Notes: generated by a model not told the origin, from the letters alone. A stretch of DNA of 64,000 bases from Candidatus Sulfotelmatobacter sp. (GCA_030041475.1 JASHNU010000074.1:50528-114527); one strand, 5' to 3'. Shown: positions 9,368-60,115, numbered from the stretch's first letter. Translations and numbers: made by a program.

Positions 9368-11155
9368 ATGAAGAACCGCATTTTCTTCAAACTGCTGGCT
9401 GCATTTCTGATTGTGATCGCGGCCGCCGCGGCGACTCTGGATCTGGTCGTCGGGGGTGCGTGGGAAGCCTCTCTGCGCACCGAAATCGAACGCAATCTAA
9501 CGCAAAAAACGCTGTTGTTCGCACATCGTGTCGAGAGCGACCACACCCGCTCCCTCGCTGAAATTGTTGCCCAGGAGGGCCAGGCCGCAGGGGCCCGCGC
9601 CACGGTCATTGACGCTTCTGGCAAAGTGCTGGCGGACTCGGAGTCGAATCTCTCCCCCGACGAGAATGACGCCGGACAGGCCGAGTTCGCCGCGGCACTG
9701 AAGGGCGAGACCAGTTCGAGTGAGCGCCGCAGCGAGAACGTGGGCATTCCATTTCTTTATGTGGCTGCTCCTATCACGGGAGGCGCCGTTCGGCTGGCTT
9801 ATCCTCTGTCAGACATCCAGGCCGTGCAGGCCGAGGTGCATCGCCGCATGTTCTGGGGGTTGGCTATCGCGCTGGTCATCGCACTGCTGGTAGCCGCAAC
9901 GGCTTCGGTCATAACTGCCCGCCGTCTGGAGCGCATTGTGGATGTCGCCGCCCGCATTGAGCGAGGCGATTTGCGAGCCCGCGTGGATGATCCCTCGGTC
10001 GACGAAATTGGCCGCGTGGCCGTGGCCATCGACCGCACGGCCGGCCAGGTGGAACGCAGTTTTGCCGCCGTGCGTTCCAGCCAGCGCCAGCTCGAGACTC
10101 TGCTGAACAGCATGCAGGATGCCGTCATCGCCGTCAGCGCCGATGGCCTGGTGCAGTGGGCCAATCAACCCATGGACCGCCTGGTTCCGCAGCGCACGCG
10201 GCTCAATGCGCCCATGGTCGAAACGATTCGCGATCCTGACTTTCTGGCTACAGTCAAGGCCGCTACGGCCACAAAACGAGTCTGCACAGGCCGCGCCACC
10301 TCAATCGTTCCCGGTCGCGCCTATGACGTGACCGCCGCGCCGCTGCCCGACGGCGGAGCTGTCGCTGTTCTCCGTGATCTCACCGAAACCGAGCGCGTCG
10401 AAAAGACCCGCCGGGACTTCATCGCCAATGTCTCACACGAGCTGCGCACACCGCTCACTTCGATCCAGGGGTACTCCGAAACTCTTCTCGACAGCATTCC
10501 CGAGAACTCCGGCCACAACCGCGATTTCCTGGAGATCATCCGCAAGAACGCCGCGCGCATGTCACGCTTGACCGAAGACCTGCTGACGCTGGCGCGGGTC
10601 GAATCGGGCGAAACCCGGTTTGAGCCCGAACCGGTTCCGCCCATCGAGCTTTTGAACGATGCCGAAGAGAGCTTCCGCGAGATCGCCCGCGGACAGGGCG
10701 TGGAACTGCAGATCGACGGAGTGGGCAAGAACGGTCAGAAATCTACAACCGCGTCATTGAAGGCGCCGGACTTGCCCTCGGGTGACGGCTCCGTCGAATC
10801 GCTACCACAGGTCCTGGCCGATCGCGAGGCCATCCACCAGGTTTTTTCCAACCTGATCGACAACGCCATGAAATACGGCCGTTCCGGAGGCTGCATCGTG
10901 CTCGGCGCGCGCCATGCCCCGCGCGGCATCGAGTTCTATGTGCAGGATTTTGGAGCCGGTATCTCATCCGAGCACCTGCCGCGCCTTTTCGAACGCTTCT
11001 ATCGCGTCGACAAAGCCCGCTCCCGCGAATCGGGCGGCACGGGCCTGGGACTCGCCATTGCCAAGCACATCATGCTGGCCCACCGCGGTTCTATCCGCGC
11101 CGAAAGCGAACTCAACCACGGCAGCACGTTTCTGTTTACCCTCCCTTTTGCCTGA
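9368..11155 (+). CDS. PhoR-like sensor histidine kinase (TM-sensor-HAMP-PAS-HisKA-HATPase)
   Basis: 595 aa with two TM segments. H-box is DFIANVSHELRTPLTSIQGYSETL, N-box is NLIDNAMKY, and G-boxes are DFGAGI and GGTGLGLAI. It sits immediately after the regulator gene. Confidence 0.9.
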   Translation: MKNRIFFKLLAAFLIVIAAAAATLDLVVGGAWEASLRTEIERNLTQKTLLFAHRVESDHTRSLAEIVAQEGQAAGARATVIDASGKVLADSESNLSPDENDAGQAEFAAALKGETSSSERRSENVGIPFLYVAAPITGGAVRLAYPLSDIQAVQAEVHRRMFWGLAIALVIALLVAATASVITARRLERIVDVAARIERGDLRARVDDPSVDEIGRVAVAIDRTAGQVERSFAAVRSSQRQLETLLNSMQDAVIAVSADGLVQWANQPMDRLVPQRTRLNAPMVETIRDPDFLATVKAATATKRVCTGRATSIVPGRAYDVTAAPLPDGGAVAVLRDLTETERVEKTRRDFIANVSHELRTPLTSIQGYSETLLDSIPENSGHNRDFLEIIRKNAARMSRLTEDLLTLARVESGETRFEPEPVPPIELLNDAEESFREIARGQGVELQIDGVGKNGQKSTTASLKAPDLPSGDGSVESLPQVLADREAIHQVFSNLIDNAMKYGRSGGCIVLGARHAPRGIEFYVQDFGAGISSEHLPRLFERFYRVDKARSRESGGTGLGLAIAKHIMLAHRGSIRAESELNHGSTFLFTLPFA

Positions 11156-23076: not shown

Positions 23077-24453
23077 CTAGCTTTTCACGATCTTTCTCGC
23101 CACGCCGTCCCAGACTGCGGCTGAGCGGTTGAAATACGAGAAGTTTGACAGGTGGCAGCCGATAGCCGCATGGTTGCCAAAAACTTCGTTCTCGGTCACC
23201 GGCTTCCGGTTGCGGATGGCGTTAAAGAAGTTGGCCTGATGATCGACCGTGTCGTTGTAGTCGGGCGGCGGGGCATAGGATTCGCTTTCGGCATCAACGG
23301 TAGAAGTCAGGGCAGCCGGTTCAGGATACTCCTTGTGCCATTGCTCCAGGTACTTCTCCCGGAGTTCCTTCGGCCAGCCGTGGATGGAGTAGCCCTCGGG
23401 CTGCGGACGCGTATCCTGCGGGATGTAGCTCAGGCTTGAATCTTTGATGACCATCGTACCCTTCGTGCCGTAGAAGCCGATAAATTCACCGCCATCGTTG
23501 TTCAGGTTGCAGCGCAGCGTGACTTTGAAGTTGGGATAATCGTAGAGCGTTTCGATCAGGTCGGGAAATTCGCGGCCGTCTTTGAAGTGATACAGGCCTC
23601 CGCTGGACTGCGCGCGCTGCGCCACTAGGTTGGTGCCCGTGATGAAGTGAATGCCAGAAATAAGGTGGACGAACAGATCGCCGGCCAGTCCCTCGCCGTA
23701 ATCCTCATAACAGCGCCAGCGGAAAAAGCGTACGGGATCGAAGGCGCGCTTGGGCGCACCGCCAAGAAACGTATTCCAGTCGATGGTCTTCTCGCTGGCA
23801 TCAGGAGGAATGGGGTACACCCACGCGCCGCTCGGAGAATTGCGGTCCCAGTACGCGTTGATGGAGAAAACTTCGCCCAGCTTGCCAGAGTCGTAAATTT
23901 CCTTCGCCTTAAGGTAAAGAACGGAGCTCACGCGCTGGCTGCCGATCTGCACAATGCGGTTGTTTTTCTGCGCCGCCTCGATCATGGCGAAGCCGTCCTC
24001 GACCGTGTGCGACATCGGCTTCTCGCAGTAGACGTCTTTGCCGGCGGCGCAGGCGTCCTCGAAGATGTGGCGATGTTGATGGTCAGTAACGGCAATGATG
24101 ACCGCGTCAACGTCTTTGCGGTCCAGAATGCTGCGATATTCGCGCGTTGCGGTCACGCCGGGATTCTTGACCGCTTCGCGCGCGGCGGTGTGCCGGCTGT
24201 CGTAGAGGTCGCAGACCGCCGCGCATTCCACTCCCGGCAGGTGCGTGGTGGCTTCGAGAAGTTCACATCCGCGAACCCCGGTTCCGATGGAAGCGAAGCG
24301 GATCGTGTCGCTGGCCGGGACATCACCCGATAAGCCGCGCGGAGAGGCAAAGAGCACCTGCGGCTGGAGGAGAGTCTTCACAAATGACGCGGCTGCCATA
24401 GCGCCGCTGCCGAGTTGGATAAATTGCCGTCGAGTAAAAGGATTGCGAGCCAT
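23077..24453 (-). CDS. Gfo/Idh/MocA-family oxidoreductase with twin-arginine (TAT) signal
   Basis: 458 aa with a TAT motif (TRRQFIQLGSGAMAAASF), a Rossmann segment (IRFASIGTGVRG) and the conserved EKP motif (VYCEKPM). Confidence 0.85.
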   Translation of the reverse strand: MARNPFTRRQFIQLGSGAMAAASFVKTLLQPQVLFASPRGLSGDVPASDTIRFASIGTGVRGCELLEATTHLPGVECAAVCDLYDSRHTAAREAVKNPGVTATREYRSILDRKDVDAVIIAVTDHQHRHIFEDACAAGKDVYCEKPMSHTVEDGFAMIEAAQKNNRIVQIGSQRVSSVLYLKAKEIYDSGKLGEVFSINAYWDRNSPSGAWVYPIPPDASEKTIDWNTFLGGAPKRAFDPVRFFRWRCYEDYGEGLAGDLFVHLISGIHFITGTNLVAQRAQSSGGLYHFKDGREFPDLIETLYDYPNFKVTLRCNLNNDGGEFIGFYGTKGTMVIKDSSLSYIPQDTRPQPEGYSIHGWPKELREKYLEQWHKEYPEPAALTSTVDAESESYAPPPDYNDTVDHQANFFNAIRNRKPVTENEVFGNHAAIGCHLSNFSYFNRSAAVWDGVARKIVKS

Positions 24454-24792
24454 GGAATTTGCCGCCCTCGTGAGAAAACTGGAATTGTCCGACGGTTGTG
24501 AGCTGATCGGAGTGGAAAATTATCCCACAGGCGGGGAGGGACAGCATGAATCGATTTTGGCCGGGTCGCGTGGTCAGGGGTTTAACCGCGAACTGCACAA
24601 AAGATTCGCATAGCGCCCGGCGAACCTTCTGGACTCACGAAGATGTACAGGGAGAAAGAGTGGAGGGAAAAATTAAAAGGGCCGTGACATTGGTTATGCC
24701 CTAGCCAGCGGCTCCTGCGAGGGAGCCAATAGCGTGGAAGCATGTACCGTCACAGCCCCTTGATGTAATCACTGCTTTCGCAGTCCCAAACC

Positions 24793-24824
24793 CCGGCTGC
24801 CCCTCGCAGAGCTGTCGGTTTTTT
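24793..24824 (+). terminator. Orphan terminator-like hairpin plus T6 in a gene-free gap (candidate 3' end of an unannotated transcript)
   Basis: ccggctgc / gctgtcgg forms an 8-position stem (6 Watson-Crick pairs, 1 G-U, 1 mismatch) with a 10-nt loop, followed by tttttt. No CDS lies upstream on the + strand. Confidence 0.3.
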
Positions 24825-25184
24825 CAGGTCTGGTCGCCCCGCAGGTTGCCCCGCTTGGCTGATCACCCAGCCTACTTCGGACTGGCTCAGTGTTATTGTG
24901 CCAACCCTTTCGACCGTCGACGATGCCAAGTTAACAGAGCATTCATAAAAGTCAACGCAAACTTTCGGTGCAACCGCGTTTTCAAAACCTGTGCATAACC
25001 AGTAACGTAAATGGTTGTGATGGCGAAGCTTACTAAAAATGGAATTTGATCCGGCCTGGTTTTGCACAAATGTTGCACAGTAGTACAAAAAATTCGGAAA
25101 CTCTTGAAAGGGAACCAAATAATTCAACTTGACCCGGAATCATAATGGGGGCATCTTACAACAAGCGCGTCCACCAGCGAACTG

Positions 25185-25601
25185 ATGTCTGAACTTGTGG
25201 CTTACGTAGACGGGGGTAGCCTGGGAAATCCGGGGCCTTCCGGTATTGGCGTAGTAATCAATGGCAGCGCGGCGGAACCGGTGCGCATCGCCAAATGGAT
25301 TGGGCACCAAGATAACAACGTCGCAGAATACGCCGCGCTCATGGAGGCGCTGCAATACGCCGTGGCGCGCAAGGCCCACAAGCTTCATGTCTTTTCCGAT
25401 TCGCAAGTTGTAGTCAAGCAGATGACGGGCGAATATACCTGCCGCAGCCCGCGCCTCTACTCCCTGCACTGGACCTGCCGCAAGCTGGCGCGAGCGCTGA
25501 AGTTCTCCATCTCGCACGTTCCCCGCGAGGATAATGCCGAGGCCAATCGCCTGGCGCAGTCGGCGCTGCGCAAACGTAGTCGCTCCGCGGCCAGCAATTA
25601 G
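25185..25601 (+). CDS. rnhA: Ribonuclease HI
   Basis: 138 aa. The DEDD catalytic pattern sits in AYVDGGSLGNPGPSG, NNVAEYAALMEAL, VFSDSQVVVKQM and REDNAEANRLA. Confidence 0.88.
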   Translation: MSELVAYVDGGSLGNPGPSGIGVVINGSAAEPVRIAKWIGHQDNNVAEYAALMEALQYAVARKAHKLHVFSDSQVVVKQMTGEYTCRSPRLYSLHWTCRKLARALKFSISHVPREDNAEANRLAQSALRKRSRSAASN

Positions 25602-53537: not shown

Positions 53538-53583
53538 CCTCTGACGGAAGTTCCCTGGGCCTTCCCTGATCCCTCCGAAGTGT

Positions 53584-55353
53584 TCAGAATCGGTCGAGCG
53601 GCAACGGCTTGAACGGAATCTGGAACGTGGCCTCCACCTCGACGGGAATGCCATTCCTGGTTGCGGGCTGGAATTGCCACTCGGAGACAGCCTGGCTGGC
53701 GCGCTGGTCGAGGCGCGGATCGAGACTGCGCAGCACGCGGATATTGCCTACCGTGCCATCGGTGTGAATGATGGCGTAGAGAATCACGGTGCCCGTCACG
53801 TTCTGGCGCATCAGCTGCAAGGGGTAGCCAGGATCGACTTTGACCTTGGCGACGGGCGCCGAAAGCTCGCCAGAGGAATTCGGATCGGGATGAAGCTCGG
53901 CAAAGCGCACCACCCAGCTTCCTCCTGCTGAGTTCAGGTTCGGCATGTTGAGTGTGAGCGAGAAGAACTGGCGGCCGAGAAAAATGCTGCGCTCGACATC
54001 CGATAGTTTGGCCGTGCTCTCTGAGCGAAGGGATGCAGGAGCACCGGCATTGGCGTGCGGCAGGCTGGCGCTGGCGACGACAGCCGGATTCAGTGCGGTA
54101 TTGCCTGAAGGCGCGTTTTCTGACGAGGGATCGCCTGCGACTGAGGCAGTTTTTCTCGAGGCGGGAGCGCTACCCACATAAAGCCCCGCGGGGAGATCGC
54201 TGTTTCCGTTCCGGTTCGTCCCAGCCCCACCGCCGTTGCCCGCCGCTGACCCACCCTCCGCTGAACCACCCCCGGCTGAACCAGGCAAGCCCGAAGCGCC
54301 GACACGACCCTCGGGAGTCGCCGCGAATATGCCTCGGCGGTTTCCCACGGGCGGGTCCGGTGGCGGGTCGACGGCAGGATGCAAATTCAGAGCGACAACG
54401 CGGCCTGGCGATCCGAGCGAATCGCCCGCTGATGTAGACCCGGAGAGCGCTGGCGGCGGAGGGACAACCTGCGGGGCAGCGGCTATTCCGATGGCAGACC
54501 ATGCTCCCTGCTCTTCTACTGCAAGTTGCGGAGCGGGAGCGATCACAGAGCTGCGCCCCATGTTGATGTCTCCAATCGCTCGGCTGGCCATTGGCGTTGC
54601 ATCGACGCTGGGCGGAGGAGCGATCACCGCGAGCTGCTTCTTCGGCAGGGAGACCGTGGCAGGAGATACGCGAACTTCGGGCGGCGGCGCCACGACAGAG
54701 GCCTGCAAGGTGGGCGAGGCGATTCGCGAAAGCTCCGCGGCTGGGGTCAGGGGTGCGGCAGGAATGGCGAGGCGCGGCTTCTGCGCAGCGTCCGGCCAGG
54801 CAACTACATTCGGCAGCGCGACGTCGTGCTTCAGCTTCACATTCGGCGGAGTGACGATGGTCTGCGAGCGGTTGTCAGCCTCCGGCGGAAGCGAAATGAT
54901 CGGCTGGCGCGAAAACTCCGGGTCGGCCGGCTTAGGTTCATCTGCCTTCTGCTTATCAAAGCTTGGAGGGTCCTCCTGCGCAACTCGCGTATCAAGCGGC
55001 GGCAGATATTCCTCCGCCGAGTAGTAGATTAGCTGCGAACGATCGAAGACCGGCCGCGGGACGGGTGGCGGCTGCAGCGCAAGGAATTGGATGACTTCCA
55101 CGAGCAGCAGAAACGCCGCGCAATGCCAGGCACACGACTGGAGAAACCCGAACCAGGGCAGCCCGCGCTTCACAAACACGTCGGGCCAGAACGGAGCGGG
55201 AGCGGAGCGAAGCTCAAGCCGGGCGAGGCGGCGCGGAAAAATCAAGTCGCGCAGGTTGCTGAAGAAAACCCGCGGACGGGACGGCAACTCGACCAGCAGG
55301 CGCGGGATGGGCGCCGGCTGCAGCGTTTCCGCCGAGACTCGGGCTGCGGTCAT
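53584..55353 (-). CDS. TonB-family energy transducer-like protein (long Pro/Ala-rich linker)
   Basis: 589 aa with an N-terminal TM (AWHCAAFLLLVEVIQFLAL), an extended Pro-rich region and a C-terminal TonB_C-like domain (YPLQLMRQNVTGTVILYAIIHTDGTVGNIRVLRS...AVSEWQFQPATRNGIPVEV). Confidence 0.8.
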   Translation of the reverse strand: MTAARVSAETLQPAPIPRLLVELPSRPRVFFSNLRDLIFPRRLARLELRSAPAPFWPDVFVKRGLPWFGFLQSCAWHCAAFLLLVEVIQFLALQPPPVPRPVFDRSQLIYYSAEEYLPPLDTRVAQEDPPSFDKQKADEPKPADPEFSRQPIISLPPEADNRSQTIVTPPNVKLKHDVALPNVVAWPDAAQKPRLAIPAAPLTPAAELSRIASPTLQASVVAPPPEVRVSPATVSLPKKQLAVIAPPPSVDATPMASRAIGDINMGRSSVIAPAPQLAVEEQGAWSAIGIAAAPQVVPPPPALSGSTSAGDSLGSPGRVVALNLHPAVDPPPDPPVGNRRGIFAATPEGRVGASGLPGSAGGGSAEGGSAAGNGGGAGTNRNGNSDLPAGLYVGSAPASRKTASVAGDPSSENAPSGNTALNPAVVASASLPHANAGAPASLRSESTAKLSDVERSIFLGRQFFSLTLNMPNLNSAGGSWVVRFAELHPDPNSSGELSAPVAKVKVDPGYPLQLMRQNVTGTVILYAIIHTDGTVGNIRVLRSLDPRLDQRASQAVSEWQFQPATRNGIPVEVEATFQIPFKPLPLDRF

Positions 55354-55498
55354 TCTGCCTATAGTAGATGCATGCGGGCGAGTTGGGTAGACCGAAAGGA
55401 CATCGGCTTCCCGTTCTGGGCAGGCCCGGGTTTTCCCGAAACGCGTTTATAATCTGTGGTTCAGCATTCAATCGCATTCCTACTGTAAGGATTCAATT

Positions 55499-58048
55499 TT
55501 GCTCGATTTTCTGGGAGATTTACGACGCACGCACATGTGCGGCACGCTGCGTTCCTCCGACGCCGGCAAGAAGGCCGTGCTCATGGGCTGGGTGAACAAG
55601 CGGCGTGACCACGGCAGCCTGCTCTTCATCGACCTGCGCGACCGCACGGGCATCATGCAGGTCGTGGTTAACGCCGAACGCAACGCGGCCATCCATGAAA
55701 AGGCGGAAACGCTGCGCAACGAATACGTCATCGCCGCGATTGGCACGGTGAAGTTGCGCGACGCCAACACGATCAATCCCAACATGTCCACGGGCGAAGT
55801 GGAGCTGGTCGCCGACGACATTCGCATTCTGAACGAATCGAAGCTCCCGCCGTTCCTGCCTTCCGACACGGCGCTCACCAACGAAGAGACGCGGCTGAAG
55901 TACCGGTACATCGACCTGCGGCGCGACGTGATGCAGTTCAACATTGAGACGCGGCACAAAGTGGCCAAGGCGATTCGCGACTACCTTTCGGGACAGGGAT
56001 TTTTCGAGATCGAGACGCCGTTTATGACGCGGTCCACGCCCGAGGGCGCGCGTGATTATCTCGTGCCCAGCCGCGTGCAGCCGGGAACGTTCTACGCCCT
56101 GCCGCAGTCGCCGCAGATGTTCAAACAGATTCTGATGATTTCGGGATTCGACAAATATTTCCAGATCGTGCGCTGCTTCCGCGACGAGGACCTGCGCGCC
56201 GACCGCCAGCCTGAGTTCACGCAGATCGATCTTGAGATTTCCTATCCGCAGCCGGAGCGGGTGTGGGAGGTGGTGGAAGGATTTTTGACCGCGGCGTTCA
56301 AGGCTGCCGGATTCGAGATCAAGACGCCGTTTCCGCGCATGGACTATGACGAGGGCATCCGTCAGTTCGGCATCGACAAGCCCGATCTGCGGTTGCCTGC
56401 GTTCACGGATGTGCGCGACTGTTTCAGCGCGGAAAATCTGCAGGAACTGGCAATCAACGCGAATCTGCCGGTGATCGCGATCCGCACGCCGAAGGTCGGC
56501 GAGTTGTCACGCAAGGAGCGGGATGACATCAAGCCGATGTTCCACTCCAAGGGTGGCGCTCGCGTGTATGAAGATTTCAAGCGCATCGGCAATAAGTATC
56601 CCGAGGCTGCGACTGCGATTACGAAGAAATGTGGCGCGCAAGATGGCGACCTGATCGTGTTGGTGGCCGGGTCGGCGCAGGCCGGGCCGCAGACGGCAAT
56701 GCCGGCGCATCGCAAGGTGACGCCGGCGGAGCTTTTGATCTACGCCTCGGCGGGCCTGCTGCGGCTGGCGCTGGGGCAGAAATACGCCGAGCGGCACAAG
56801 TGTTTTCAGCGGGGCGATTTCCGTTTTATGTGGGTCACGAATTTTCCTATGTTCGAATGGGACCAGGACGAAGGGCAGTGGATGGCGGCGCACCATCCGT
56901 TTACTTCGCCGCACGAAGAGGACATGGGCCTGCTGGAAGCGGGAGTGGACTCAGTGAAGGATCCGCAGTCGCCTCTGAGCGCCGTGCGGGCACTGGCCTA
57001 CGATGTGGTTCTGAACGGTACCGAACTCGGCTCGGGATCGATTCGTATTCATCGGCAGGATATTCAGCGCAAGATCTTCAAGGCCCTGGGCATGAGCGAC
57101 GAAGAAGCAAAGTCGCGCTTTGGATTCTTCCTGGAAGCGCTGGAATATGGCACGCCTCCGCATGGGGGCATTGCGCTTGGCCTGGACCGCATCGTCATGA
57201 TTCTGGCCGGGGCGGAGAGTCTGCGCGAAGTCATTCCGTTCCCCAAGACCGCGCGCGCGGTGGATTTGATGGTCGATGCGCCGACAAGCGTTGCCGTCAC
57301 ACAGGAGGAGCAAGTCGAACTCATGGCGGCGTGGTCCGAGCTTTCAGATCAGGAGTGGAGGCTGGCCCATGTCTGCGACGAGCTTCTAGGGATTACTCGC
57401 GAGACGATTTCTGAGAATCCGCTTTCAGTGGACGCACTTCATCGGAGAGCTACATCTCTTATCCTTGGAAAGGCATTTAACGACGCCCGTAGCGCGATTA
57501 AGTTGGCGAAGGCGGGCTATGGCGTTCAAGCTGCTGCCTTAGCCCGCTCTCTTGTTGAGGCATCCATCAATCTACAGTACATAGAAAAGGACCCTGAACC
57601 CCGATCGGCCGAGTTCCTTGACCTTGGGAGCGACGAACGGAGAAAGCTCTTTTCGCGGGTGAAGAGTCACCCGCACACTCAAGAAGTTGCGGATGCCTTT
57701 AGTCGCTTCCAGTTCATTTCCCAGAAAAGCGCGTGGCCCAAGACGTTGTCCGAAAGGGCCTATGCGGTTGACAATCCTTCCTACGATTACGATGTAGTTT
57801 TTCTCCTCCTATCGCAACTTATACATTCATCTCCTTCGGGCTTGGTAGGGCAATTGAGCACGCTTGATGGCCGGAGCTTCGAAATACAGATCGGCAGGTC
57901 TCATGAGTGGATTGATACCGCTCTTGCACTTGTTTTTATGTATTTCGCACAGATTTCGCAAACTGCGTTCAATACATTTGGCCTGGACTGCCAAGGGCTA
58001 CAGCCGACGTTCGATGCCTTTAGGAAGCTTCATCCCCAGGGTATGTGA
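55499..58048 (+). CDS. aspS: Aspartate-tRNA ligase whose ORF continues into an unrelated C-terminal module of about 240 aa
   Basis: 849-aa ORF. Residues 1 to about 608 are canonical AspRS (GWVNKRRDHGSLLFIDLRD, FYALPQSPQMFKQ, FRDEDLRADRQPEFTQID, GSIRIH, HGGIALGLDRIVM, IPFPKT). Bacterial AspRS normally ends about 20-30 aa after the xAPS/T motif. Here the frame stays open for another 240 or so codons. Confidence 0.9.
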   Translation: MLDFLGDLRRTHMCGTLRSSDAGKKAVLMGWVNKRRDHGSLLFIDLRDRTGIMQVVVNAERNAAIHEKAETLRNEYVIAAIGTVKLRDANTINPNMSTGEVELVADDIRILNESKLPPFLPSDTALTNEETRLKYRYIDLRRDVMQFNIETRHKVAKAIRDYLSGQGFFEIETPFMTRSTPEGARDYLVPSRVQPGTFYALPQSPQMFKQILMISGFDKYFQIVRCFRDEDLRADRQPEFTQIDLEISYPQPERVWEVVEGFLTAAFKAAGFEIKTPFPRMDYDEGIRQFGIDKPDLRLPAFTDVRDCFSAENLQELAINANLPVIAIRTPKVGELSRKERDDIKPMFHSKGGARVYEDFKRIGNKYPEAATAITKKCGAQDGDLIVLVAGSAQAGPQTAMPAHRKVTPAELLIYASAGLLRLALGQKYAERHKCFQRGDFRFMWVTNFPMFEWDQDEGQWMAAHHPFTSPHEEDMGLLEAGVDSVKDPQSPLSAVRALAYDVVLNGTELGSGSIRIHRQDIQRKIFKALGMSDEEAKSRFGFFLEALEYGTPPHGGIALGLDRIVMILAGAESLREVIPFPKTARAVDLMVDAPTSVAVTQEEQVELMAAWSELSDQEWRLAHVCDELLGITRETISENPLSVDALHRRATSLILGKAFNDARSAIKLAKAGYGVQAAALARSLVEASINLQYIEKDPEPRSAEFLDLGSDERRKLFSRVKSHPHTQEVADAFSRFQFISQKSAWPKTLSERAYAVDNPSYDYDVVFLLLSQLIHSSPSGLVGQLSTLDGRSFEIQIGRSHEWIDTALALVFMYFAQISQTAFNTFGLDCQGLQPTFDAFRKLHPQGM
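57323..58048 (+). other. Lower-GC DUF5677-like helical module fused in frame to (or internally initiated within) aspS
   Basis: It starts at an in-frame ATG (57323) 14 nt after aggagg. The motif AAALARSLVEASINLQYIEKDPEPRSAEFL resembles the R-x-L-x-E-x-x-I-x-L-x-Y-I core I associate with DUF5677. My hand count is 51% G+C over 57361..58020, against 60% over 55981..56280. Confidence 0.55.
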
Positions 58049-58074
58049 GCTGTGTGAAACAGCTTTGTTTTCTT
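58048..58074 (+). terminator. AT-rich intrinsic terminator directly after the aspS-fusion stop
   Basis: agctgt-gtgaa-acagct, followed by ttgttttctt. Confidence 0.5.
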
Positions 58075-58130
58075 GTTCGGGGAAGGGACCCACTCTCACC
58101 AGCGTCGCCATGATGGTGCTGCCATTGATA

Positions 58131-58205
58131 CCTCGGCGGCTAAAGCCACTGTTTCCATGGCCACTCTATCGCAGCGCTGGAAGCGCTGCGCCACCCAAGA
58201 GCACT
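58131..58205 (+). repeat. REP-like element, family B (intergenic copy)
   Basis: cctcggcggctaaagccac...gcagcgctggaagcgctgcgccacccaagagcac. It shares the cggctaaagcc head with 33452 and 37470 and the tail with 47364. Confidence 0.75.
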
Positions 58206-58268
58206 CTTTGTTTAGCGGATTTCCGTTTTGAAACTTCTGATGGCGCAGCCTGTGCTAGTCTGCCTGCT

Positions 58269-59498
58269 ATGACGGACGGCATTTCGACGCACTCTTCCGG
58301 TGCTCCCATCACGCACCGCAAGCACTTCCTCAGCGACAAGGTTGCGCACTTCACTGAATCCGTCATCCGTGAGATGACGCGGCAGGCCATGCTGCATGGC
58401 GCCGTCAATCTTGCGCAGGGATTTCCCGACTTCCCCGCTCCTGCCGAGATCAAACAGGCCGCGCAGCAGGCCATCGCCGCGGACGTGAATCAGTACGCCA
58501 TCACCTGGGGCGCGAAGAACCTGCGCAACGCGATCGCGCGACAGATGCTGGCCGCGCATGGGATGGAAGTCGATCCCGAGAAGGAAATTACGGTCTGCTG
58601 CGGGTCAACCGAGGCGATGATTTCAACTCTGCTAGCCTGCTGCAACGCGGGCGACGAAGTCGTAATCTTTGAGCCGTTCTATGAGAACTACGGGCCGGAC
58701 TCGGTGCTGAGCGGGGCAAAGCCGAAGTTTGTGAAGCTGCGTCCGCCGAAGGATCAGAACGGTGAGTGGACGTTCGACGAAAAAGAATTGCGCCGCACTT
58801 TCGACAAGCATACGAAAGCGATCATTCTGAATACCCCGAACAACCCAACCGGCAAGGTTTTCACACGGGGCGAGCTGGAGCTAATCCGCGACCTGTGCGT
58901 CGAGTTCGATGTGCTGGCGATTACCGACGAGATTTACGAGCACATTCTTTACGATGGGACGAAGCATATTTCGATGGCGTCGCTCGAAGGCATGCGTGAG
59001 CGGACGGTGACCATCAACGGCATGTCGAAGACCTACAGTGTGACGGGATGGCGCGTGGGATGGACCGTGGCGCCGGAGAAGATCACGACGGCGATCCGCA
59101 AGGTGCACGATTTTCTGACGGTGGGCGCGCCCGCTCCGCTGCAAGAGGCGGGCGCGGCGGCGCTCAGCCTGCCCGCCGAATATTATGCGAGGCTCGCCGA
59201 GGGATATCGCGTTCGCCGTGATCATCTCGTGCCGGCGCTGGCTGCGGCCGGTTTCAAGTGCTTCCTGCCGCGCGGGGCGTATTACGTGATGACCGACATT
59301 TCGGCCTTCGGCTACAGCGACGATGTTTCTTTCGCGCGTTATCTGGTGCAGGAAATTGGCGTGGCAACCGTGCCGGGATCGAGTTTCTACCGCGATCCGC
59401 GCGATGGAGCGCAGCAGATTCGATTCGCGTTCTGCAAGAGGCCGGAGACGCTGGATGAGGCGGTGCGACGGCTGGGGAAGTTGCGCCGGTCGAAATGA
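58269..59498 (+). CDS. Class I/II PLP aminotransferase (kynurenine/methionine/aspartate aminotransferase-like)
   Basis: The internal ATG of track ORF 57864.. gives MTDGISTHSS.... Motifs are NLAQGFPDF, NTPNNPTGKVF, the PLP Lys in NGMSKTYSVTGWRVGW and a C-terminal IRFAFCK. The upstream part of the ORF runs through the REP element. Confidence 0.88.
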   Translation: MTDGISTHSSGAPITHRKHFLSDKVAHFTESVIREMTRQAMLHGAVNLAQGFPDFPAPAEIKQAAQQAIAADVNQYAITWGAKNLRNAIARQMLAAHGMEVDPEKEITVCCGSTEAMISTLLACCNAGDEVVIFEPFYENYGPDSVLSGAKPKFVKLRPPKDQNGEWTFDEKELRRTFDKHTKAIILNTPNNPTGKVFTRGELELIRDLCVEFDVLAITDEIYEHILYDGTKHISMASLEGMRERTVTINGMSKTYSVTGWRVGWTVAPEKITTAIRKVHDFLTVGAPAPLQEAGAAALSLPAEYYARLAEGYRVRRDHLVPALAAAGFKCFLPRGAYYVMTDISAFGYSDDVSFARYLVQEIGVATVPGSSFYRDPRDGAQQIRFAFCKRPETLDEAVRRLGKLRRSK

Positions 59499-59541
59499 AC
59501 CAAATTAAGTGCCGTCCCTGCCCGGGACTCTTCTTGTAGCC

Positions 59542-59561
59542 ATCCACCCTACCCGGCACTG
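59542..59561. terminator. Shared hairpin between convergent aminotransferase and sodC genes
   Basis: cccggcac-tgcc-gtgccggg has the same stem sequence as the terminator at 33398. No T-tract is present. Confidence 0.45.
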
Positions 59562-59602
59562 CCGTGCCGGGCTGTCACATTCCGCCGCTTCGCGGCTGGC
59601 CG

Positions 59603-60115
59603 CTACTTCGTGAGCACGCCGCAGGCGATGCGATCTCCGGAGTTGCCGGAAGGGTCGGTTTTGTAATCGTCGGCTTTGGCGTGGACGACGATCGCGGCGC
59701 CGCTCGTCAATAGAGAGTGCGGGCCATCCTTAAGCGTGACATCGGTGTTTTCCAACCTGCCTTCTGCCTTGCCGTCCGCGGCAACCGTAAAGTTCTTCAT
59801 GTCGCCGGCGTGATGGCCGTCGGGGTTGTCGAAGCCGTGCTTCTTGCCTTCCGGATTGAAGTGGCCGCCTGCAGACTTGAAATCGGGCGCTTCACACTTC
59901 GGCGTCTGGTGGAAGTGAATCGCGTGCTCCCCTGGAGGTAGATCATGAAGATTCAGCTGAAGTCCGACCCCGCTGTCGGTATCCCAGAGAATCACGCTGC
60001 CGACAGATTTTCCCTGAGCATCTTTGAGTTCCACGTTGGTCTTGGCGGCGCTCCGCGATGAGAGGGCGATTACCGCGAAGCACAATCCGAGGGTTAGAAA
60101 GGCAAGGTGTCTCAT
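59603..60115 (-). CDS. sodC: Periplasmic Cu,Zn superoxide dismutase
   Basis: 170 aa with a signal peptide. Metal ligand blocks are HAIHFHQ, GGHFNP, HHAGDM and [11 protein letters not shown]. Confidence 0.9.

Follow-up and report, generated by a model that had tools for sequence, protein, structure and literature searches.

Introduction

Fusions between aminoacyl-tRNA synthetases (aaRSs) and other domains are known, and most are regarded as characters that are fixed within a lineage. In the bifunctional AspRS-GatC proteins (NF009460 / PRK12820), an extra domain sits in frame at the C-terminus of a bacterial-type aspartyl-tRNA synthetase (AspRS). In Mycoplasma penetrans, methionyl-tRNA synthetase (MetRS) is reported to carry an appended aminotransferase together with ancillary domains (PMC7694997, PMC13215547). 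Here we describe a related arrangement in a 64,000-nucleotide stretch of DNA from Candidatus Sulfotelmatobacter sp. (GCA_030041475.1 JASHNU010000074.1:50528-114527; the whole stretch is referred to as the window), in which the AspRS gene aspS reads without a stop into a module of DUF5677, a widespread and uncharacterised protein family.

The window locus shares with AspRS-GatC the in-frame position of the extra domain, but the domain appended there is GatC, whereas here it is DUF5677, which is polymorphic and exchanged among close relatives. With the MetRS of M. penetrans it has in common that a housekeeping synthetase was extended by a non-synthetase domain through gene fusion; in fusions of that type the added domains are N-terminal and have a demonstrated substrate-related activity, in contrast to the C-terminal, hypervariable locus found here. 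We know of no report of strain-level presence and absence, or of allele swapping, for other bacterial aaRS fusions. A conserved body, a motif that marks the switch point and divergent C-terminal domains that are swapped between strains are familiar from the CdiA-CT and Rhs-CT loci, to which the window locus may be likened by analogy in its evolutionary behaviour alone: unlike those toxins, AspRS is not secreted but is an essential cytosolic enzyme, the module is not followed by an immunity gene and there is no sign that it is toxic. In the following, L numbers are our handles for DNA loci and P numbers those for protein records.

Results

A bacterial-type AspRS continues into a complete DUF5677 domain

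Positions 55499..58048 on the plus strand form a single open reading frame (ORF) of 849 codons, which comprises AspRS and an extension with no stop between the two parts. The NCBIfam equivalog NF001750 matches residues 9–609 (model positions 4–585 of 590) with 720.4 bits against a cutoff of 443, and TIGR00459 scores 643.3 bits against a cutoff of 373.85, which places the protein among the bacterial-type aspartate–tRNA ligases. Pfam recognizes the OB fold of tRNA_anti-codon (PF01336) at residues 27–111 (60 bits) and the class II D/K/N catalytic domain tRNA-synt_2 (PF00152) at residues 128–584 (387 bits); the GAD insertion domain is matched weakly (15.5 bits vs 23.4). Assignment to the bifunctional AspRS-GatC family was rejected, as NF009460 reached 517.9 bits against a cutoff of 1379 and was matched at model positions 15–615 of 723, its AspRS part alone. 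The start of aspS is ambiguous between a TTG at 55499, which gives the 849-aa form, and an ATG at 55535, which gives the 837 aa of the NCBI product (P0159); the TTG is plausibly the true start, because the 12 upstream codons (LLDFLGDLRRTH) are kept in many homologues.

A first-pass annotation of the window had noticed that aspS lacks a stop at the usual position and reads on for about 240 codons into a DUF5677-like module of lower G+C, which opens with an in-frame ATG behind an AGGAGG and ends in a hairpin with a T-tract. All of these features were recovered (Table 1). A hidden Markov model search identified the 241-residue extension as Pfam DUF5677 (PF18928), with a score of 63 bits where the cutoff is 27.1 (model positions 5–161 of 166, E = 4.7e-17). 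Its G+C is 0.520 as opposed to 0.604 in the core, and at third codon positions (GC3) the values are 0.552 and 0.776, respectively. The hairpin is weak (−9 kcal/mol, z = −1.5), and terminator-like sites are no more numerous in the region than in shuffled sequence. The sequence past the module stop of L008, L009 and L011 shows no obvious hairpin and, on inspection by eye, resembles the beginning of mutL; the terminator is peculiar to the window's copy of the cassette.

A profile search of 1.84 billion cluster representatives produced a sharp gap in score. About 29 sequences, mostly fragments of the fused form, scored above 90 bits, and below the gap lay the general DUF5677 family of free-standing, 250–265 aa proteins, which align from about profile position 30 to the end. 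Given this gap and the near full-length alignment of the standalone proteins, what is attached to AspRS is a whole DUF5677 protein plus one extra N-terminal helix. The standalone proteins have the same domain over nearly its full length and keep R75, W138, Y156 and H168, but the extra helix sets the fused subfamily apart from them, and that subfamily is found only on AspRS. In a family alignment of 64 sequences H168 (codon 57824–57826) is invariant and R75 (codon 57545–57547) is near-invariant at 98%, with R75, W138, Y156 and L61 all conserved in at least 90%. Conservation across DUF5677 extends to L61, G65, G67, R75, S76, E79, Y86, I87, R94, W138, Y156, S164 and H168, and since the fused modules retain every one of these residues, the domain in the fusion is evidently intact. 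Forty columns are invariant across 10 homologues.

Structure prediction, which had been suggested as a check on the extension, gave a confident AlphaFold2 (AF2) model of the module alone (predicted local distance difference test, pLDDT, 85; predicted template modelling score, pTM, 0.79), all-alpha with one small hairpin. The ratio of nonsynonymous to synonymous substitution (dN/dS) of the module is about 0.08 in the one computable pair, L005 vs L007, and the module is under purifying selection.

A swapped segment replaces the aspS end found in unfused relatives

When the full protein was used as a query, the most similar AspRS cores (~94–95% aa identity) were those of ordinary unfused 600-aa enzymes (P0168–P0170); other fused proteins were 68–76% identical overall, and about 9 of the best-scoring 120 AspRS relatives carry the module. 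Unfused relatives end 16 residues past ...DAPT, with the tail PVSEKQLRELGIQVKK followed by the stop. Two unfused loci, L013 (GCA_964407245.1) and L014, share the gene order of the window, in which M28 peptidase and a 744-aa ORF are followed by a minus-strand TonB_C protein, aspS, an aminotransferase, minus-strand Sod_Cu and ZapA. In blastn comparisons window 53584–57285 corresponds to L013 4049–7751, and window 58136–60058 to L013 7897–9818, with sharp edges at 57285/57286 and 58135/58136 that enclose the swapped segment (Table 1).

The left breakpoint lies inside aspS, right after ...GATGCGCCGAC (DAPT) and 36 nt upstream of the ATG, so the swapped unit carries its own version of the last AspRS helix. 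The aspS core is 87.9% identical to that of L013 at the nucleotide level with no gaps, and this identity is even along the gene (83–91% per 150 nt, 90% in the last 100 nt). Its dN/dS against unfused L013 is 0.047, and it occupies the same chromosomal position as aspS of L013 and L014; the core is constrained and lies where the housekeeping gene lies, and both points lend indirect support to its being the working (sole) AspRS of the cell.

The 850-bp segment consists of the tail helix, the module and the hairpin, and nothing else; integrase, transposase or recombinase genes, terminal repeats and a target-site duplication, the hallmarks of a mobile element, were not found in it. Its right boundary coincides with a dispersed element that resembles repetitive extragenic palindromic (REP) sequences, has no Rfam family and is present in one copy in the window. 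Further copies are found in L013 (3974–4042 and 7897–7965), in L006 (10775–10846, inverted, with a compensatory stem change) and, partially, in L005 (~10760–10800), and the same boundary site is thus also occupied in an unfused relative.

The first-pass annotation had taken the module for a cassette that landed on, or replaced, the aspS stop codon, and had proposed to align the 3′ ends of aspS in relatives to see whether it is strain-specific. Replacement is borne out in that a segment of lower G+C takes the place of the tail and stop of L013 and L014, but the boundary does not fall at the stop or at the ATG; it lies upstream, within aspS. Likewise, the closest relatives do stop normally and lack the module, but the module is not strain-specific.

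The fusion recurs across Terriglobia

A word-indexed search with the extension returned nine relatives at 38–56% identity, and wherever their sequence reached far enough upstream, the AspRS C-terminus met the module at an identical position (...APTSV..TQEEQLEL-MAAW...). When an alignment of the module alone was run against 185,579 species-representative genomes, it yielded nine loci, all in metagenome-assembled genomes (MAGs) of Terriglobia (Acidobacteriota); the module is in frame with aspS in 9/9 of them, and complete frames span 840–933 codons. Metagenomes contributed 28 further loci, of which 21 are in frame with the AspRS core and 2 keep the frame of the AspRS tail as far as the contig reaches; four of the remainder are cut within the module, and in the last (L047) the core hops three frames yet runs directly into the module. 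In total, 29 distinct DNA junctions from Terriglobia MAGs and metagenomes join an AspRS tail to the module, and the fusion is shared by dozens of Acidobacteria from soil. The junction is also carried by further protein records, and at least one pipeline annotation has assigned the two domains to a single protein (P0005). We found no description of an AspRS-DUF5677 fusion in the literature.

Neither the genome scan nor the metagenome scan contained a verified standalone copy of the fused module subfamily. Five candidates for such a gene were rejected: L003 has a single-base frame break through one missing base (atg[g]ccgat); L002 likewise has a single-base frame break, on a contig that splits each of hisS, aspS and mutL; L022 and L023 are truncated by the ends of their contigs, and in L023 the 12 nt upstream read ELEL in frame; and L047 has several frameshifts in its AspRS core. 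Among the best 150 family representatives, no fusion to a gene other than aspS was found.

In the long-read-style assemblies that hold L001/L004 and L002 (ENA ERZ25039465, ERZ25039562), frameshifts divide hisS, aspS and mutL into two or three ORFs each, and the fused aspS is annotated there as AspRS fragments plus a "DUF5677 protein", which would hide the fusion in catalogues.

With this distribution, the fusion is not a chance landing in one strain. It is present on cores that are just 49–51% identical to the window's (L009, L011), and the arrangement is therefore old. The first-pass annotation had listed low G+C among the features of a horizontally acquired cassette. Across the 64 kb, only 0.8% of 723-nt intervals have a G+C as low as that of the module; module GC3 is lower than core GC3 in 9/9 loci and lower than the median of long host ORFs in 11/11. 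Because it is present in all 11 loci tested, low G+C is a property of the whole subfamily and no mark of recent arrival.

The sole other stretch of the window that is as GC-poor (~24454–25184, ~730 bp, 0.515) holds no convincing ORF and lies between an ORF on the minus strand (23077–24453) and one on the plus strand (25185–25601).

Core and module have different histories

In a neighbour-joining (NJ) tree of the cores, fused proteins have unfused ones as neighbours at the tips: the window groups with P0168, L005 with P0230, and P0162 with P0174 (Ca. Sulfotelmatobacter kueseliae). In this last pair, fused P0162 shows 11 differences from unfused P0174 in the first 579 residues, after which the two diverge completely. 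Modules are far more diverged than cores (37–60% vs 83–91% identity), as separate comparisons between fused sequences illustrate: the window is 89% identical to L005 in the core and 60% in the module, and for the window vs P0161 these values are 91% and 37%, for L005 vs L007 94% and 67%, and for L009 vs L011 90% and 50%.

At least two module subtypes can be distinguished. Subtype A includes the window, and subtype B, comprising P0161, P0162, P0164 and P0165, is 36–41% identical to A; the subtype-B protein P0161 scores 46.7 bits against DUF5677. Both subtypes occur on cores that are 85–92% identical to each other, as in P0160 (subtype A) and P0164 (subtype B), where the cores are 89% and the modules 39% identical. 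P0162 and P0165 differ at 45 positions in the first 469 residues, at 0 in residues 470–608 and at 13 in the module. Their modules resemble each other more closely than their cores do, a sign that the 3′ part was transferred recently.

In genome pairs whose synonymous divergence (dS) is 0.86–1.9 in the core, that of the module has reached saturation (~3 or not computable). With dS saturated and yet a dN/dS of 0.08, the module is constrained as a protein, but its alleles look older than, or foreign to, their cores. Some clades agree between core and module (P0163/P0166/P0167/L006 and L009/L011). Our searches for a donor returned no module with more than ~60% identity to that of the window.

Judged on the sequences compared, these data show the 3′ end of aspS to be polymorphic: it exists in at least three states, with subtype A, with subtype B or without a module. 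They also show that the module is not a fixed lineage trait and that its states have been exchanged between lineages.

The junction between AspRS and the module

The junction peptide of the window reads ...EEQVELMAAWSELSDQEWR. All fused proteins have the tail motif [SPAD][VI]xxxQE[ED][QE]LEL and all unfused proteins have PV[SPG][ED]xQL[KR][ED]LGIxVKK. The codon at the junction is ATG in 25/29 of the distinct DNA junctions, CTC in 2/29, ATC in 1/29 and ATA in 1/29, and the junction residue is Leu or Ile in every subtype-B protein and in P0160. A core of at least 5 nt that resembles a Shine–Dalgarno (SD) sequence is found in 8/29 junctions; its distance from the junction codon is always 12–14 nt and never 4–10 nt. 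It is made up of the codons CAG-GAG-GAR (Q-E-E), the synonymous sites there vary freely, and it is through synonymous changes that relatives have lost the motif. In no relative does a stop end aspS upstream of the module. The comparative evidence favours a single polypeptide of ~95 kDa, as read from the coding sequence, rather than two products.

Search for a function of the DUF5677 module

Profiles built from the subfamily alignment (A2) and from the family alignment (A4) retrieved noise alone and no HEPN match among PDB sequences, and a Foldseek comparison of the module model brought up no structure at E < 0.2 in either the PDB or BFVD. The HEPN RNase AbiV (9bj7) had the top Foldseek probability among PDB hits (0.33–0.60 across chains) and was rejected for its poor superposition (E = 0.4–1.3, template modelling (TM) score 0.29–0.39, root-mean-square deviation 11–13 Å). 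AbiV is all-alpha like the module, but the module is without Rx4-6H, the motif that defines HEPN (bioRxiv 10.1101/2024.05.05.592566). Membership in HEPN was rejected in general, as there is no conserved Arg 5–7 residues before H168, either in the fused modules (DVVFLLLSQLIH) or family-wide; R75 and H168 are 93 residues apart, and position 7 before H168 is not conserved family-wide. A permissive Pfam scan of 64 family members found no recurring second family, with DUF6988 in 2 members.

Some standalone DUF5677 members are fused to HTH_17 or SEC-C motifs. On three soil contigs (L015–L017; JGI, ENA; L015 at ~1094–2806) an HTH_17-DUF5677 gene lies 34 bp upstream of pP_pnuc_1 (PF18165), a family listed in Pfam as a predicted pPIWI-associated nuclease. 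These two genes may form a conflict module, and if so, they would offer a functional handle on DUF5677. Another standalone DUF5677 gene sits after a HicAB pair, and a preprint describes DUF5677 as enriched near serine recombinases (PMC12632615). The contexts of standalone DUF5677 are circumstantial pointers to accessory or conflict-related biology.

Discussion

What makes this locus unusual is its population behaviour: the C-terminal domain of the synthetase is swappable, hyperdivergent and variably present. We consider it probable that AspRS and a complete DUF5677 domain are made as one polypeptide of ~95 kDa, that the 3′ end of the gene is exchangeable and that the module has a role accessory to AspRS or tRNA-Asp. 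The C-terminal helix of AspRS would continue through a short linker into the DUF5677 domain, and translation from the aspS start would yield one module per AspRS polypeptide; with no stop and no conserved internal start, this is the only route of expression conserved in the subfamily. The exchanged unit is bounded on one side by a breakpoint within the highly conserved ...FPKTARAVDLMVDAP coding stretch and on the other by one in the flank downstream, and exchange would proceed by homologous recombination. Since sister lineages have aspS at the same chromosomal position without the module, it would be dispensable for aminoacylation. Its role would be an accessory one, specific to AspRS or tRNA-Asp, for which physical attachment to the synthetase is needed.

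The role that we regard as the most likely, though we put it forward tentatively, is in inter-genomic conflict, with the module acting as a sensor, immunity or defence module attached to the synthetase. A narrower version, which is doubtful as it stands, is that of a tethered immune or immunity module that guards AspRS or tRNA-Asp against a phage factor, a synthetase-directed toxin or an antibiotic, or that senses interference with them; its alleles (absent, A and B) would then be kept by balancing or frequency-dependent selection. If this were true, it would be, to our knowledge, the first exchangeable conflict module inside the coding sequence of an essential aaRS.

Several points weigh against this picture. 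The window has an ATG at the junction and may make a second, shorter product from a minor internal start. The comparison of 850 bp with 145 bp carries no direction and fits a gain in the window lineage or a loss in its sisters; the core tree is an NJ tree on identity distances without support values; and the lower core dS may partly reflect a stronger codon bias of the core. The genome and metagenome scans used subtype-A peptide patterns, by which subtype B is under-counted. The AF2 model of the full-length protein, made from a shallow alignment, is too poor (pLDDT 61, pTM 0.39) for docking of the module to be read from it. As regards conflict, the module matched 0 families of PADLOC-DB 2.0 at E ≤ 1 and 0 PHROGs, a scan of viral contigs for the module found none, and tblastn of phage and plasmid records with standalone DUF5677 found no match. 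Two standalone DUF5677 neighbourhoods are informative (those with pP_pnuc_1 and HicAB), most contigs being too short, and the preprint that tested a DUF5677 ORF in Enterococcus does not count it with the ORFs for which it reports protection from phage (PMC12632615).

The alternatives differ in how much of the locus they deny. The fusion would be an artefact if the assembly had missed a stop, shifted the frame or joined unrelated pieces into a chimera, and the source indeed appears to be a MAG, like its nearest records, with indel errors in some related contigs; but the identical junction recurs in independent assemblies of both short and long reads, in 29 distinct DNA sequences altogether, and this, together with the record of the same protein at NCBI (P0159), effectively refutes this. 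The first-pass annotation had left the choice between a fusion and a nested gene. The read-through ORF is genuine, but the second option, in which a DUF5677 protein would be made separately from ATG 57323 with AGGAGG as its ribosome-binding site, finds no comparative support and is very improbable. It could draw on that ATG and AGGAGG in the window and on the Met at the junction residue in 25/29 junctions; against it stand the four junctions with CTC, ATC or ATA, the Leu or Ile of subtype B and P0160, and an SD-like core that occurs in just 8/29, at 12–14 nt, as the product of Q-E-E codons with free synonymous sites. Separate genes would also be expected to leave some relatives with an aspS stop before the module, and none has one.

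Two further alternatives accept the single polypeptide. The module could be an ancestral, lineage-specific AspRS domain that is intrinsic to aminoacylation (through tRNA binding, regulation or GatCAB assembly) and was inherited vertically with many losses, as the spread to cores of 49–51% identity, a subfamily that is always fused and never standalone, its own first helix and fused-type tail helix, purifying selection and the congruent clades (P0163/P0166/P0167/L006 and L009/L011) would allow. Such a domain is nevertheless unlikely, given presence and absence at the tips on cores 95–98% identical, two subtypes 36–41% identical on cores 85–92% identical, the greater likeness of P0162 and P0165 in the module than in the core, saturated dS in the module and not in the core, a GC3 that is persistently sub-genomic, and the share of only ~9 of the best 120 AspRS relatives with the module. 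For an ancestral domain the first-pass annotation had pictured close relatives that all carry the extension at genome-typical composition; here the closest are without it, and distant ones carry it at sub-genomic G+C. Alternatively, a neutral or selfish hitch-hiker, a promoterless gene expressed by read-through from an essential one with no functional link to AspRS, would agree with a cassette devoid of a promoter or conserved ribosome-binding site, with patchy distribution and low G+C, and with the viability of the unfused state. We regard it as quite improbable, since the association is exclusive to AspRS across deep divergence with no fusion to other genes in the best 150 family representatives, the module is under purifying selection, and the helix unique to the fused subfamily is conserved.

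On the reading of an exchangeable accessory domain of AspRS, the 3′ end of an essential, slow-evolving gene is an accessory hypervariable locus that is always in frame, where a domain is attached, removed or replaced by a ~37% identical version on cores that are 91–98% identical. Its importance depends on the function of the module. The locus offers a natural presence/absence experiment toward the function of DUF5677 and points to a functional link between this family and AspRS or tRNA-Asp. It also shows that recombining accessory segments can lie within core genes that serve as phylogenetic markers, and annotation pipelines may label such fusions as plain aspartate–tRNA ligase, or split them at contig frameshifts.

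Features of the locus and its surroundings

The features of the fused gene and of the swapped segment are collected in Table 1.

Table 1. Positions of the parts of the fused aspS gene and its 3′ flank, counted from the first letter of the window.
Feature	Position	Strand	Remarks
aspS core (OB anticodon-binding and class II catalytic domains), up to ...VDLMVDAPT	55499..57285	+	common to unfused relatives; Pfam, NF001750
Fused-type last AspRS helix SVAVTQEEQVEL, in place of the unfused tail PVSEKQLRELGIQVKK and stop	57286..57322	+	tail types separate cleanly
Swapped segment (cassette), 850 bp vs 145 bp in L013/L014; G+C 0.524	57286..58135	+	blastn blocks, abrupt similarity loss
AGGAGG from CAG-GAG-GAG (Q-E-E) codons	57303..57308	+	14 nt upstream of ATG 57323
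DUF5677 module, 241 codons and TGA stop	57323..58048 (codons 57323-58045, stop 58046-58048)	+	PF18928
First module helix, residues 9-30, W.LA..CD.L	57347..57412	+	fused subfamily only; pLDDT ~96; conserved in fused homologues
Module residues 45-180, covered by the DUF5677 profile of Pfam	57455..57862	+	PF18928
Terminator-like hairpin (GAGCTGT..ACAGCTT), 7 pairs, 3 G-C, then T-rich tail TGTTTTCTTG	hairpin 58047-58065, with tail to 58075	+	overlaps stop codon
REP-like dispersed element, ~70 bp, TACC.C.GCGGCTAAAGCC...GCAGCGCTGGAAGCGCTGCGCCACCCAAGAGC, 8-bp G+C hairpin	58129..58202	+	right boundary of swapped segment

A second indel between the window and L013 sits between the 744-aa ORF and the TonB-like gene, where 45 bp in the window (53539–53583) correspond to ~670 bp in L013 (3379–4048), where the REP-like element has a further copy next to an ORF of 139 aa. 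The TonB_C-type protein that precedes aspS (53584–55353, minus strand) is proline/alanine-rich and fast-evolving, with 76.6% aa identity to L013 in comparison with 94–95% for the 744-aa ORF and the AspRS core. Downstream, between the stop of the aminotransferase gene (59498) and Sod_Cu (59603–60115, minus strand), lies a full-length match to the Rfam Acido-Lenti-1 RNA (RF01687) at 59552–59597 on the plus strand, with 53.5 bits against a gathering threshold of 37.

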